DNA of 64,000 nt from NCBI RefSeq assembly GCF_055900595.2, contig NZ_CM148325.1; one strand, given 5' to 3'. Shown in pieces: positions 30 to 60,256 of the stretch. Each line of letters begins with the position of its first letter. Positions within the stretch are counted from its first letter, which is position 1. The translations under genes were made by a program, and so were the position numbers. The notes under the pieces are model-generated. The model saw nothing but the letters and a program-made list of their open reading frames with translations, made no database searches and was not told the origin of the DNA.

Positions 30-602
30 TTAGTCATTATGACTGGCATGGATTAACGTCAACCCCGGATGATGCCACAAACTGGCTGGCGTGACGGTTT
101 TACGCTCCCACGGAATAGAACCTAAGAACCAGAATTTCCAGAAAGTGAGTTTTGCATTTGGATTGCTGTTTAGCAGTTCTCCAAACGTCTCTATTTCACC
201 CACCGGAATACATAACGCCTCTTTATAAATATCAAAAACGAATTTTGAACAGAACTGGCGGGAAGATTCGTATTTAAAACCGGTGTGGTAGAACTTATGC
301 AACCGGGCAGGGACCTTTTCGACAAGAGCAAGTTTCTGCTCTGCGGTTAAACCTCCTGCCAGGCGGCGAACACCGTAGCGTTGCTCGGTCGACCGTTCAA
401 TAAATCGTGACAAAGTTGTGATTGTGGAGAGCGGAACTCGACTCTCCGCAACCAGGTAATCATCACCGTCATGTCCGATGATTATCCCCACATGGTTGCT
501 CCAGCATTTCGAGGCTGCAGAGATTTGCCCAAACAGGCGAGCACCGATGCAGGTAAAAACAATATCACCGGTTTCATATTTAGCTGGGTAATTTATTTTC
601 AC
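30..602 (-). CDS. yebB: YebB-like protein (conserved core gene divergent from ruvA); apparent GTG start at 600-602
   Basis: 190-aa ORF; position divergent from ruvA matches core synteny; protein recalled as YebB-like from memory, not verified. Confidence 0.65.
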
Positions 603-695: not shown

Positions 696-1520
696 ATGCG
701 GTTATTTATTAATGTGATAATGATAGTTTCGATCAGTCAATGCGTGAATGTATTTGCTCAAGATAATGTCATTCGCTATCCCTGGCGATATGGACGTATT
801 TCTTTAAATGAGAATAATGAGTTTGTGCCTCAAATTATTCATATGCGTGATGATATCTACGGCGTGGGTGAAGTTGGTGCAAGCCTTAACGATGCGAGAA
901 TGGCGCAAAGTGGTGTCACCGTGAGGCTTAGCGTTATACAGCAGGGGCAGGTGGTGAATGCTTTACTGGATTTCTACAATAGCAATAATCAACCTGCTTA
1001 TATATTTGAAGGCGGTTTATTGTCCTGCAATAAAGCCTTTGACATCACAACAAACAACATTGTCCTTGATGGGATGTGTGGAATTTATGATGGGGTCGAT
1101 GGCTGGCAAGTTATTCCTGCGGGTGAGCATTATAAAGAATCGTTTTCACTCACTCAGGCTTTTGAATTCTTGCCGGGAAAACATCATTATAAAATTAATG
1201 CCGGAGGTTTTATCATCAGAGTCGGGGATGATATTTTTGCAAGAGAAGATGCCGAAAGCATTCTTTTTGATTTGATTAACTGGCGATATGGCTATGTGCT
1301 AAAAAGTTATGAAAGGGTGTCAAAGGGGGATTTGATGGCAGGATATTATGCTCTGTATGAATACTCAGGCGCTGACATAATTGATGAGTATGATATTTAC
1401 TCAAACCAGGTGTCGATTGATCTTAATGGTGACGAGTTAGCACATACGGAGTCCTATCAGTGGCGAATTGATAGCGGAATGATCCCGGAAAAATTCAGCG
1501 TTCAGGGACTCGCTGAATGA
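696..1520 (+). CDS. hypothetical secreted protein, 274 aa, with predicted Sec signal peptide (MRLFINVIMIVSISQCVNVFA / QDNV)
   Basis: ATG at 696 preceded by AAGGA (684-688); N-terminus has n/h/c signal-peptide architecture with V at -3 and A at -1; the track ORF 471-1520 is trimmed because 471-602 overlaps yebB. Confidence 0.55.
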   Translation: MRLFINVIMIVSISQCVNVFAQDNVIRYPWRYGRISLNENNEFVPQIIHMRDDIYGVGEVGASLNDARMAQSGVTVRLSVIQQGQVVNALLDFYNSNNQPAYIFEGGLLSCNKAFDITTNNIVLDGMCGIYDGVDGWQVIPAGEHYKESFSLTQAFEFLPGKHHYKINAGGFIIRVGDDIFAREDAESILFDLINWRYGYVLKSYERVSKGDLMAGYYALYEYSGADIIDEYDIYSNQVSIDLNGDELAHTESYQWRIDSGMIPEKFSVQGLAE

Positions 1521-1557: not shown

Positions 1558-2127
1558 ATGAATTTATCAAGCGTATTCAATCAGCTTTTAATCTCATTAG
1601 CTCTTGCCGGGACGTTGATATCAAGCAGCTATCTCATGGAAGCTCACTACCCGCGTTTCAGGAAGCCAATTGCGTTCTTTTACTTCTTCTTAGCAATTTA
1701 TACCAGTTATGCTGCCGTTCTGGAGTATGAGTACCACCGCACTAGCTTGACTACGCTCGCAAAAGTTTCTTCGGTTCGTTATACCAGTAATTTTGAGCGT
1801 AGCGCCTCGCACTCCTGCAATTTACTGCGGGGAGGAAGGATTGATTGCACGGGGCTGTATGCCTATGACCTGACCTGGCAGATTGACGGTAAGACCTGGA
1901 ATTTGCATGTTGAGGACAAGCGTATAAAACCAGGATTCACCATGTGCGTGAAGGTTGTAAAAGATCGCCCCGCCATCGGGAAATCCTGTGAAAACGCGTT
2001 TTTCAATGTCAGCCCTTTGCCGATTCTGATAGCTATATGGGCAATCAGCGCATTTATATTTGCGGTCTTACTCCTTCACAGACTAAAAAAATGCCGCAAA
2101 TGGAAGCACGCCAGCAAGGGGCGTTGA
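1558..2127 (+). CDS. hypothetical membrane protein, 189 aa, about three hydrophobic segments and a Cys-containing loop of about 90 aa
   Basis: ATG at 1558 with AGAGG 5 nt upstream (alternative TTG at 1537); hydrophobic stretches LLISLALAGTLISS, IAFFYFFLAIYTSYAAVL, LPILIAIWAISAFIFAVLLL; 37 nt downstream of ORF1, same strand. Confidence 0.5.
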   Translation: MNLSSVFNQLLISLALAGTLISSSYLMEAHYPRFRKPIAFFYFFLAIYTSYAAVLEYEYHRTSLTTLAKVSSVRYTSNFERSASHSCNLLRGGRIDCTGLYAYDLTWQIDGKTWNLHVEDKRIKPGFTMCVKVVKDRPAIGKSCENAFFNVSPLPILIAIWAISAFIFAVLLLHRLKKCRKWKHASKGR

Positions 2128-2229
2128 AAAATTGGGCATTAGAAGTGTGATGTAAGGGGGATTCATACAGAATTTCTGATGCTGTGAGCAAAAGGATTAT
2201 CATTTCTGAAATGATTTAATATCATCCCT

Positions 2230-2249
2230 CGCTGGATATCTATCCAGCA
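2230..2249. promoter_or_regulatory. LexA (SOS) box of the ruvAB promoter, CTGGATATCTATCCAG
   Basis: CTG-N10-CAG palindrome at 2232-2247, 50 nt upstream of ruvA start. Confidence 0.8.
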
Positions 2250-2298
2250 TTTTTTTATCATACAGCATTATCTTTGATTCATTACGCAGGAGCGTCAT

Positions 2299-2910
2299 GT
2301 GATAGGCAGACTCAGAGGCATCATCATTGAAAAACAACCCCCACTGGTATTAATTGAAGTGGGCGGCGTAGGCTATGAAGTGCATATGCCGATGACCTGT
2401 TTTTATGAACTCCCTGAAGCGGGTCAGGAAGCGATCGTTTTCACCCACTTTGTGGTGCGTGAAGACGCGCAACTGCTGTACGGTTTTAACAATAAACAAG
2501 AGCGCACGTTGTTCAAAGAGTTGATCAAAACCAACGGCGTTGGGCCTAAACTGGCATTGGCAATCCTCTCCGGAATGTCAGCGCAGCAGTTCGTTAATGC
2601 CGTTGAGCGTGAAGAAGTGGGGGCGCTGGTGAAACTGCCGGGTATTGGCAAAAAAACCGCCGAACGCTTGATTGTCGAAATGAAAGACCGATTTAAAGGT
2701 TTACATGGCGATCTCTTTACGCCAGCTGCCGACCTGGTACTCACGTCACCTGCCAGCCCGGCGACCGATGATGCCGAACAGGAAGCGGTTGCCGCGCTGG
2801 TGGCGCTGGGCTATAAACCACAAGAAGCAAGCCGCATGGTGAGCAAAATCGCTCGCCCTGACGCCAGCAGTGAAACATTAATTCGCGAAGCCCTGCGCGC
2901 CGCGTTATGA
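2299..2910 (+). CDS. ruvA: Holliday junction branch migration complex subunit RuvA (GTG start)
   Basis: 203-aa [31 protein letters not shown]... recognised as RuvA. Confidence 0.97.
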
Positions 2911-2915
2911 GGTAA

Positions 2916-3929
<1,014 letters not shown>

Positions 3930-7978: not shown

Positions 7979-8009
7979 GCCGGTACGCAGTCAGTACCGG
8001 CTTTTTTTA
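7979..8009 (+). terminator. rho-independent terminator downstream of mepM
   Basis: GCCGGTACGCAGTCAGTACCGGC hairpin followed by TTTTTTT. Confidence 0.8.
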
Positions 8010-58524: not shown

Positions 58525-60210
58525 TTGAAGAAGGTTTGGCTTAACCGTTATCCCGCGGACGTTCCGACGGAGATCAACCCTGACCGTTATCAATCTCTGG
58601 TAGATATGTTTGAGCAGTCGGTCGCGCGCTACGCCGATCAACCCGCGTTTGTGAATATGGGGGAGGTGATGACCTTCCGCAAACTGGAAGAACGCAGTCG
58701 CGCGTTTGCCGCTTATTTGCAACAAGGGTTGGGACTGAAGAAAGGCGATCGCGTTGCGTTGATGATGCCTAATTTATTGCAATATCCGGTGGCGCTGTTT
58801 GGCATTTTGCGTGCCGGGATGATCGTTGTAAACGTTAACCCGTTGTATACCCCGCGTGAGCTGGAGCATCAGCTTAACGATAGCGGCGCATCAGCGATTG
58901 TTATCGTGTCTAATTTTGCCCACACTCTGGAAAAAGTGGTTGATAAAACCGCCGTTCAGCACGTTATTCTGACCCGTATGGGCGATCAGCTATCCACGGC
59001 AAAAGGCACGGTAGTCAACTTCGTTGTTAAATACATCAAGCGTCTGGTGCCGAAATACCATCTTCCAGATGCCATCTCATTTCGCAGCGCACTGCATAAC
59101 GGCTACCGGATGCAGTACGTCAAACCCGAACTGGTGCCAGAAGATTTAGCTTTCCTGCAATATACCGGCGGTACCACTGGTGTGGCGAAGGGCGCGATGC
59201 TGACTCACCGCAATATGCTGGCGAATCTGGAACAAGTTAACGCGACTTATGGGCCGCTGTTGCATCCGGGCAAAGAGCTGGTGGTGACGGCACTGCCGCT
59301 GTATCACATTTTTGCTCTGACCATTAACTGCCTGCTGTTTATTGAACTGGGTGGGCAGAACCTGCTTATCACTAACCCGCGCGATATTCCGGGGTTGGTA
59401 AAAGAGTTAGCGAAATATCCGTTTACCGCGATAACCGGCGTTAACACCTTGTTCAATGCGTTGCTGAACAATAAAGAGTTCCAGCAGCTGGATTTCTCCA
59501 GTCTGCATCTTTCTGCAGGCGGTGGTATGCCTGTTCAACAAGTGGTGGCTGAACGTTGGGTGAAACTGACCGGACAGTATCTGCTGGAAGGTTATGGCCT
59601 GACCGAGTGTGCGCCGCTGGTCAGCGTTAACCCGTATGATATTGATTATCATAGTGGTAGCATCGGTTTGCCGGTGCCGTCGACGGAAGCCAAACTGGTG
59701 GATGATGATGATAATGAAGTACCACCGGGTCAACCGGGTGAGCTTTGTGTCAAAGGACCGCAGGTGATGCTGGGTTACTGGCAGCGTCCGGATGCTACCG
59801 ATGAAATCATCAAAAATGGCTGGTTACACACCGGCGATATCGCGGTGATGGATGAAGAAGGATTCCTGCGCATTGTCGATCGTAAAAAAGACATGATTCT
59901 GGTTTCCGGTTTTAATGTCTATCCCAACGAAATTGAAGATGTCGTCATGCAGCATCCTGGCGTACAGGAAGTCGCAGCTGTTGGCGTACCTTCCGGCTCC
60001 AGTGGTGAAGCGGTGAAAATCTTCGTAGTGAAAAAAGATCCATCGCTTACCGAAGAGTCACTGGTGACCTTTTGCCGCCGTCAGCTCACGGGCTACAAAG
60101 TACCGAAGCTGGTGGAGTTTCGTGATGAGTTACCGAAATCTAACGTCGGAAAAATTTTGCGACGAGAATTACGTGACGAAGCGCGCGGCAAAGTGGACAA
60201 TAAAGCCTGA
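58525..60210 (+). CDS. fadD: long-chain fatty acid-CoA ligase FadD (TTG start at [10 protein letters not shown]; the track ORF is extended upstream)
   Basis: 561 aa with AMP-binding motif [12 protein letters not shown]. Confidence 0.93.
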
Positions 60211-60228
60211 GCGTTAAGTCAGTCGTCA

Positions 60229-60256
60229 GACGCCGGTTAATCCGGCGTTTTTTTTG
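60229..60256 (+). terminator. rho-independent terminator downstream of fadD
   Basis: CGCCGGTTAATCCGGCG hairpin followed by TTTTTTTT. Confidence 0.8.

Follow-up and report, generated by a model that had tools for sequence, protein, structure and literature searches.

A rare allele upstream of ruvAB in Escherichia coli and the LexA operator hairpin that may stop its transcripts

We analysed a 64,000-nt stretch of DNA (hereafter the window). Positions 2128-2298, between an uncharacterised two-gene cassette and ruvA, probably form the junction of a rare, old and non-mobile allele with an untouched ruvAB control region. In this junction the LexA operator itself, as a weakened hairpin, would be the sole stop for transcription coming from the cassette, and read-through into ruvAB would be partial. 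We give this reading a probability of about 0.55. The operator hairpin, followed by seven U, is the only terminator-like element between the second cassette gene and ruvA.

Organization of the left end of the window

At its left end, the window corresponds to the ruvC / yebB / ruvAB / znuCB-znuA region of E. coli and comprises the following features.

30-602, minus strand: yebB, encoding a YebB family permuted papain-like enzyme (NCBIfam NF008547, E 6.7e-111), divergent from the cassette.
About 292-2221: segment unlike the common K-12/yobI allele, with the 5' half of yebB, ORF1, ORF2 and the spacer.
696-1520, plus strand: ORF1 (274 aa), which has a signal peptide at its N-terminus, belongs to an uncharacterised family and is predicted to be mostly beta.
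1558-2127, plus strand: ORF2, 189 aa, stop codon TGA at 2125-2127.
2128-2221, plus strand: untranslated cassette tail without terminator-like structure, G-rich and C-poor.
2197-2225, plus strand: promoter-like match TTATCA-17-TATCAT (9/12) inside the cassette tail.
2199-2215, plus strand: AT-rich inverted repeat ATCATTTC-T-GAAATGAT, with a fold indistinguishable from chance.
2231-2248, plus strand: LexA operator palindrome hairpin, 7 bp, loop AUCU.
2232-2247, plus strand: ruvAB LexA box CTGGATATCTATCCAG, of the CTG-N10-CAG type, identical to K-12.
2233-2261, plus strand: ruvAB sigma-70 promoter TGGATA-17-TATCAT.
About 2249-2257, plus strand: A+T7 run, at once U-tract of the terminator-like element, ruvA promoter spacer and start of the -10.
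2299-2910, plus strand: ruvA, GTG start, SD sequence AGGAG at 2288-2292.
2919-3929, plus strand: ruvB.

ORF2 and ruvA are thus separated by 171 untranslated nucleotides. RuvA is 100% and RuvB 99.7% identical to the K-12 proteins. The positions given in the initial annotation for the ORF2 stop (2127), the LexA box (2232-2247) and the inverted repeat (2199-2215) were all borne out. Its placing of the end of the inserted DNA about 100 nt before the LexA box has to be revised. DNA divergent from K-12 reaches 2221, 10 nt from the box, and homology to 5,425 of 5,426 complete E. coli genomes resumes at 2222.

The ruvC and yebB genes of K-12 converge, a single base separating their stop codons; yebB of the window ends at position 30. 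This Escherichia arrangement leaves no room for a separate ruvC terminator.

No tRNA gene is present in the 64,000-nt window. Rfam matches at 25028-25172, 40662-41121 and 60169-60254 correspond to SraC/RyeA and SdsR/RyeB (on opposite strands), to a 5' UTR of the cspA-thermoregulator type and to sroD. Another box of the LexA type, CTGTATAAAATCACAG, lies at 17494-17509, 20 nt upstream of a 96-aa ORF (17529-17819), which we take to be YebG, an SOS gene. This ORF is divergent from a purT-like ORF (16217-17395).

Distribution and boundaries of the cassette

In K-12 and in 5,402 of the 5,426 E. coli genomes, the interval between yebB and ruvA is occupied by the yobI allele. The cassette allele (ORF1-ORF2) was found in 19 of these 5,426 genomes, always chromosomal and in single copy, and in 2 of 100,044 species representatives. 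Strains R32_14_1F (NZ_CP074749) and 2013C-4282 (NZ_CP027579) are among its carriers. This leaves about 5 complete genomes of the 5,426 in which the locus corresponds to neither allele. The E. coli copies of the cassette are 94.7-97.6% identical to that of the window (2.4-5.3% difference). The same strains are 98.5-98.9% identical to the window over 25 kb on the right-hand side of the junction, so that the window can be placed in E. coli of this minor lineage. The GC content of the cassette is 0.31-0.45.

The divergent segment takes in part of yebB, which is a mosaic. At the DNA level, region 92-291 is about 95% identical to K-12 and region 292-602, the 5' half of the gene, 55-80%. Correspondingly, the N-terminal half of the YebB protein is 77% and the C-terminal half 92% identical to K-12 YebB. 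The diverged 5' half of yebB travels with the cassette, with 95-99% protein identity to cassette-bearing loci of other lineages.

Relatives of ORF1 were found at the following loci.

Escherichia sp. E1V33 (L007) and a similar contig (L006): ORF1 91% and 88% identical; ORF2 replaced by an unrelated 228-aa ORF.
Pseudocitrobacter vendiensis (L008) and a contig with a near-identical ORF1 (L003): ORF1 71% identical; ORF2 absent.
A metagenome lineage (L005): ORF1 47% identical; ORF2 present, 46% identical.

Every relative of ORF1 that could be placed, down to 47% protein identity, occupies the yebB-ruvA interval, with unchanged orientation. The 228-aa ORF (4854-5540 in L006, 4354-5040 in L007) fills the slot after ORF1 and is unrelated to ORF2 of the window (BLASTP E 0.035). 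Thus, the slot beside the ruvA operator seems to turn over independently of ORF1. In other Enterobacteriaceae contigs, ORF2-like genes of 220-251 aa, or remnants of them, adjoin ruvA.

Three metagenome contigs (L049, L055 and L067) display other states of the island between ruvC and ruvA. One has a 220-aa ORF2-like gene and no yebB. Another has yebB and a truncated ORF2-like ORF. The third has yebB, a 327-aa ORF on the minus strand and what is left of the C-terminal extension of ORF2. In each of these contigs, the sequence TTTTTCAT lies immediately against the LexA box.

The initial annotation had treated the cassette as an insertion. A search for signs of mobility gave negative results. ORF1 and ORF2 are the only genes between yebB and ruvA, with no integrase, transposase or recombinase gene. 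No direct or inverted repeats pair the boundaries (about 292 or 603, and 2221), no target-site duplication is seen there, and no copy of the cassette was found on plasmids or phages. Together with the constant yebB-ruvA site, these results indicate that the ORF1-ORF2 segment is a rare allele of an old variable island and no recent mobile insertion. Exchange of the island probably occurs by homologous recombination through the conserved flanks.

A recently acquired mobile element that targets the SOS-regulated ruvAB promoter would fit the atypical composition of the cassette and its very patchy spread. We consider this origin very improbable. Besides the absence of mobility genes, terminal repeats, target duplication and extrachromosomal copies, such an element would not be expected at the same locus and in the same orientation in all relatives. 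The 2.4-5.3% difference between the E. coli alleles and the window argues against recent spread, and inclusion of the 5' half of yebB in the divergent segment is expected for allelic exchange.

ORF1 and ORF2

Neither ORF1 nor ORF2 gave a significant match in Pfam, NCBIfam, PADLOC, PHROG or PDB sequences. ORF1 forms six 90% clusters. Its family, with 41 representatives at E <= 1e-3, consists of uncharacterised proteins of 260-320 aa scattered through Enterobacteriaceae. Distant relatives of ORF1 are found on short contigs of unknown genes. The AlphaFold2 model of ORF1 has a pLDDT of 75, and its matches in AFDB50 are uncharacterised Enterobacteriaceae proteins. One E. coli AFDB match is annotated as a zinc metallopeptidase. 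The model shows a weak beta-sandwich likeness to the structure of AsaP1, an M35 peptidase, and to the BsuPI inhibitor, with a TM-score of only about 0.3.

ORF2 is predicted to have hydrophobic helices at its N-terminus, then a domain containing four invariant cysteines and, towards the C-terminus, a further hydrophobic helix and a basic tail. A C-terminal extension of about 60 aa, found in longer homologues, is missing. The model of ORF2 is poor (pLDDT 62, pTM 0.35).

In the window, ORF1 and ORF2 are each intact, with a plausible SD sequence ahead. In E. coli MFDS1022581, ORF1 is split into two annotated ORFs (L012, 1032-2080). The length of ORF2 is 181, 189 or 194 aa depending on the strain, with changes near the 3' end (L013, 2116-2661; L011, 2119-2703). 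The cassette thus appears to be decaying in some E. coli strains.

These signs of decay, with the loss of the C-terminal extension, bear on whether the cassette is expressed. It could be essentially silent, because of a weak or absent promoter, of repression by H-NS or of decay, and the missing terminator would then be without consequence. A promoter scan of region 603-695, upstream of ORF1, found no sigma-70-like match. AT-rich DNA in E. coli is often silenced by H-NS, and from its low GC content the cassette may be as well. Nevertheless, we view a silent cassette as rather unlikely. The two ORFs of the window are intact, with plausible SD sequences, and a distant lineage has retained ORF1 and ORF2 side by side, about 47% identical. 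This joint retention argues for selection, hence for expression.

The ruvAB promoter and operator

Region 2222-2298, which carries the -35, the LexA box, the -10 and the SD sequence of ruvAB, is that of K-12 except for one base, located outside the box. The -35 hexamer TGGATA lies inside the LexA box, and the T-run doubles as promoter spacer and as the start of the -10. The hexamers TGGATA and TATCAT have been given for ruvAB (PMC3946193). Therefore, the cassette appears, from this comparison, to leave the promoter and the operator of ruvAB undisturbed. In K-12, ruvA and ruvB are regulated by LexA and weakly induced, about 2-3-fold (PMC11228462). From the sequence identity with K-12, we infer that LexA binds to the box of the window and that ruvAB responds to damage in the same way.

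The initial annotation had suggested either that transcription from the cassette bypasses SOS control of ruvAB, or that the cassette exploits an SOS-responsive neighbourhood. The former does not follow. The ruvAB promoter and operator are intact, and the LexA-box hairpin with its U7 tract stands in the path of incoming transcripts. The latter finds no counterpart in the DNA, since no LexA box is located ahead of ORF1. The only other CTG-N10-CAG nearby, CTGTATGAATACTCAG at 1353-1368, is inside ORF1, where it encodes residues L-Y-E-Y-S. It was considered as a second LexA box controlling the cassette and rejected as a probable chance occurrence; homologues of ORF1 do not conserve these residues.

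The spacer between ORF2 and the LexA box

Terminator prediction, which the initial annotation had proposed, was carried out as two scans, a consensus scan and our own scan for hairpins followed by a T-run. No terminator-like site was detected in 2128-2230. The claim that this spacer lacks a GC-rich hairpin with a T-run therefore stands.

The AT-rich repeat at 2199-2215 is as weak as first described. Its folding energy is -2.6 kcal/mol (z -0.46), a value matched by 65 of 200 shuffles. Of the four other E. coli cassette alleles aligned, three have G for T in one arm of the repeat. A role of this repeat as terminator or regulatory hairpin was rejected, as it folds no better than shuffled sequences. 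The spacer as a whole is no more structured than shuffles either (z -0.67).

Rho-dependent termination would call for C-rich, G-poor, rut-like RNA past the stop codon. Region 2128-2230 does not have this composition. It contains 12.6% C and 22.3% G, with a C/G ratio of 0.35-0.46 in 78-nt windows. Being G-rich and C-poor, it would be a poor loading site for Rho. The cassette tail 2128-2221 is about 88% identical among the E. coli cassette alleles, with region 2191-2221 nearly invariant.

A terminator-like hairpin in the LexA box

The RNA copy of the operator palindrome, GCUGGAU-AUCU-AUCCAGC (2231-2248), forms a hairpin of 7 bp, with four GC pairs and a 4-nt loop. Its folding energy is -10.6 kcal/mol (-9.1 without dangling ends; z -5.1), none of 200 shuffles is as stable, and the hairpin is retained in every longer fold. 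A+U7 directly follows on the 3' side, so that a one-base spacer (A) precedes the U-run. The element is located 103 nt past the stop of the co-oriented ORF2, and its T-run ends at the ruvA -10. Region 2231-2257 thus has the form of an intrinsic terminator, with a G+C stem-loop, a 3' U-tract and a position behind a co-oriented gene. The consensus scan labels it terminator-like.

Strength is another matter. Sites were ranked with the d-score, using a formula that is reportedly that of d'Aubenton Carafa et al. 1990, and for ranking only. In our scan, the LexA-box hairpin comes 22nd of 254 hairpin and T-run sites of the window, with d -13. This places it in a grey zone that it shares with many sites that are surely no terminators. 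Twelve clear terminators of the window score +15 or higher (for example 43509-43492, 7979-8001 and 13517-13542), and the LexA-box element does not reach their strength (d -13 versus at least +15). The initial statement that no strong terminator precedes ruvA was therefore fair.

We found no mapped 3' end and no transcription-unit entry for yobI/ruvA in the supplements of three Term-seq / SMRT-Cappable-seq studies (PMC7815308, PMC12207403, PMC6131387). A literature search of incomplete coverage found no published ruvC terminator overlapping the ruvA SOS box, although one may have been reported.

An 11-nt perfect complementarity links UAAAAAAAUGC, at the end of ORF2 (2084-2094), to GCAUUUUUUUA in the U-tract (2247-2257). 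It is probably due to chance. An anti-terminator function of this pairing was rejected. Its 5' arm belongs to translated RNA, and its 3' arm has not yet emerged from the polymerase at the moment of the decision to terminate.

Upstream elements of ruvA across Enterobacterales

No yebB is present, and ruvC directly precedes ruvA, in Serratia, Cronobacter, Pectobacterium and record AP025685, which bears the label Salmonella. To compare the ruvA upstream elements, metagenome contigs were scanned with the fixed pattern CTGGAT-N4-ATCCAG associated with a ruvA start, leaving the flanks and the T-run free. Together with the loci fetched earlier, and after verification of the RuvA N-terminus, 45 distinct elements were aligned.

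In 33 of the 45 elements, complementary flanks (AGG/CCT, AAG/CTT or GGG/CCC) extend the palindrome to 8-9 bp, and T5-T7 follows. With the scoring applied to the window, these 33 elements have d values of +24 to +41, in the class of the 12 clear terminators of the window. The ruvC stop is 7-47 nt upstream in almost all of them. In the island-bearing lineages (E. coli with yobI, E. coli with the cassette, L003 and L049/L055/L067), the 5' flank is lost and d falls to between -13 and -50. The metagenome lineage L005 is an exception. It keeps the strong version of the hairpin, about 50 nt past the stop of a full-length ORF2. Cronobacter and Pectobacterium have a weak LexA-box hairpin, 76-145 nt from ruvC, with other GC-rich inverted repeats in between (identified by eye and unscored). 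The element of the window thus looks like a degraded copy of a form that, across Enterobacterales, resembles a strong ruvC terminator.

The flanks were examined for covariation, bearing in mind that the six core pairs are fixed by the search pattern and that the lineages are few and of unknown relatedness. Pair 11-30 is GC in 30 elements, AU in 6 and GU in 1; pair 10-31 is AU in 28, GU in 2 and GC in 1. Compensatory changes, six from GC to AU and one from AU to GC, are seen in these two pairs. Flank cells changed on both sides number 7, as compared with 2.1 in shuffles, a value reached by none of 500 shuffles. Two other measures, pairs changed on both sides and further pair types, are not above shuffles. 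The covariation of the flank base pairs suggested by the alignment is therefore modest.

These observations have to be weighed against a simpler explanation, in which the palindrome and the T-run are DNA signals only (operator, -35, spacer and -10), with no terminator activity and no function at the RNA level. The palindrome is needed for LexA binding and the T-run belongs to the promoter spacer and the -10, so that their conservation can be explained without a role in termination. Indeed, every conserved base overlaps a known ruvAB promoter signal, LexA boxes are palindromic by nature, and two of the covariation measures do not exceed shuffles. Still, some features fit this explanation poorly. 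The flanks that extend the stem are outside CTG-N10-CAG and differ from the TA/TA flanks of the LexA consensus, yet they are complementary. Moreover, the extended form is found almost exclusively right behind the ruvC stop, the place at which one expects a terminator, and it disappears when other DNA lies upstream. In Cronobacter and Pectobacterium, where the box is far from ruvC and other GC-rich repeats intervene, its hairpin is weak. On balance, we regard a purely DNA-level function as somewhat unlikely.

A broader proposal, which is tentative and which we rate as improbable, is that the ruvAB LexA operator works in two layers coupled through LexA. It would be operator and -35 as DNA and, as RNA, the stem of the terminator of the upstream gene, ruvC in most genera; a single 30-bp site would then couple LexA occupancy with transcription from upstream. 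The base of the hairpin would be a recurrent insertion point, through which the yebB/yobI/ORF1/ORF2 islands would have come in and degraded the terminator in Escherichia. LexA acting as a roadblock would then reinforce termination, and SOS induction would at once fire the ruvAB promoter and relax the insulation from ruvC. More generally, if the hairpin terminates transcription, a single palindrome would be read twice, as DNA by the repressor and as RNA by RNA polymerase. An SOS promoter would thereby be insulated from the constitutive gene upstream, and the abutting of the right-hand edge of every island on the operator would be explained. More leakage from upstream into ruvAB would be predicted in Escherichia than in genomes of the Salmonella or Serratia type.

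Possible transcription from the cassette towards ruvAB

According to the reading that we favour, the cassette tail (2128-2221) brings no terminator of its own, and only the LexA operator could stop incoming transcription, as a 7-bp RNA hairpin with A+U7 on its 3' side (2231-2257). In most Enterobacterales, the extended palindrome (8-9 bp, T5-T7) would have the form and the position of a strong intrinsic terminator of ruvC while also being the ruvAB operator and -35. Where DNA was inserted between ruvC and ruvA, as with yebB-yobI in K-12, the segment of the window and other islands, the 5' flank of the hairpin would have been lost and the element degraded. Transcripts of ORF1-ORF2 would then be partly stopped at about 2250-2258. 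In uninduced cells, bound LexA may help as a roadblock. Some read-through into ruvAB would be possible, its size depending on the cassette promoter, and the ruvAB promoter itself would remain under LexA control, as in K-12.

Alternatively, transcription of ORF1-ORF2 could continue largely unimpeded into ruvAB and bring about substantial expression independent of LexA. The lack of a terminator in 2128-2230 and a C-poor, G-rich spacer that makes Rho loading unlikely would allow this, as would a LexA-box hairpin of 7 bp only, with an A before the U-tract and a score far below those of the clear terminators of the window. However, the hairpin and U7 are present and stable in all folds, LexA bound at 2232-2247 would be in the path of the polymerase, and no promoter-like site is seen ahead of ORF1. 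The AT-rich cassette further suggests silencing by H-NS, which has been flagged in the ruvA-yobI spacer of K-12 (PMC3946193). Finally, yobI of K-12 is followed by the same weakened element, and LexA regulation of ruvAB is nonetheless reported there (PMC11228462). Overall, unimpeded read-through seems distinctly unlikely.

The idea of read-through put forward in the initial annotation is thus upheld in part. Some read-through remains plausible, as no strong terminator stands before ruvA. It would be no different in kind from what yobI may cause in K-12. There, yobI is co-oriented with ruvAB and lies upstream of the same weakened hairpin, so that the situation is not peculiar to the cassette. 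On this comparison of sequences, the relation of the cassette to ruvAB appears to be of the same kind as that of yobI to ruvAB.

Comparison with known systems

As read from its bases, the junction superimposes a LexA operator, a sigma-70 promoter and a hairpin resembling an intrinsic terminator. One of the closest known cases is the yobI-ruvA junction of K-12. In both, the gene upstream is co-oriented, a separate terminator is lacking, and the 7-bp hairpin is weakened in the same way. From 2222 onwards, they share TCATCC(C/T)TCG-LexA box-AT7-TATCAT, with one base different. The cargo differs, as K-12 has a 21-codon gene for a small stress protein where the window has genes of 274 and 189 codons. 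In addition, the 5' half of yebB in the window is a deeply diverged allele.

The ruvC-ruvA junctions of Serratia (L016), of AP025685 (L014) and of many metagenome loci have the same LexA core CTGGAT-N4-ATCCAG and a T-run, with a -10 of the TATGAT, TGTTAT or similar type. In contrast to the window, the end of ruvC is 7-47 nt upstream and neither yebB nor an island is present. The palindrome is of 8-9 bp (-13.6 to -14.6 kcal/mol in context), the T-run follows directly, and the score is that of a strong terminator.

With canonical intrinsic terminators, represented by the 12 of the window, the element shares a stem-loop followed by a U-run behind a co-oriented gene. Its stem is shorter and weaker, an A precedes the U-tract and its score is in the grey zone. 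Unlike in these terminators, the stem is also a repressor site and the U-tract also a promoter spacer.

The yebG SOS box (17494-17509) resembles the ruvA box in having CTG-N10-CAG overlapping or adjoining a promoter. It has neither the stem-extending G/C pairs nor the T7 run, whereas the ruvA box is framed by non-consensus flanks of the GC type.
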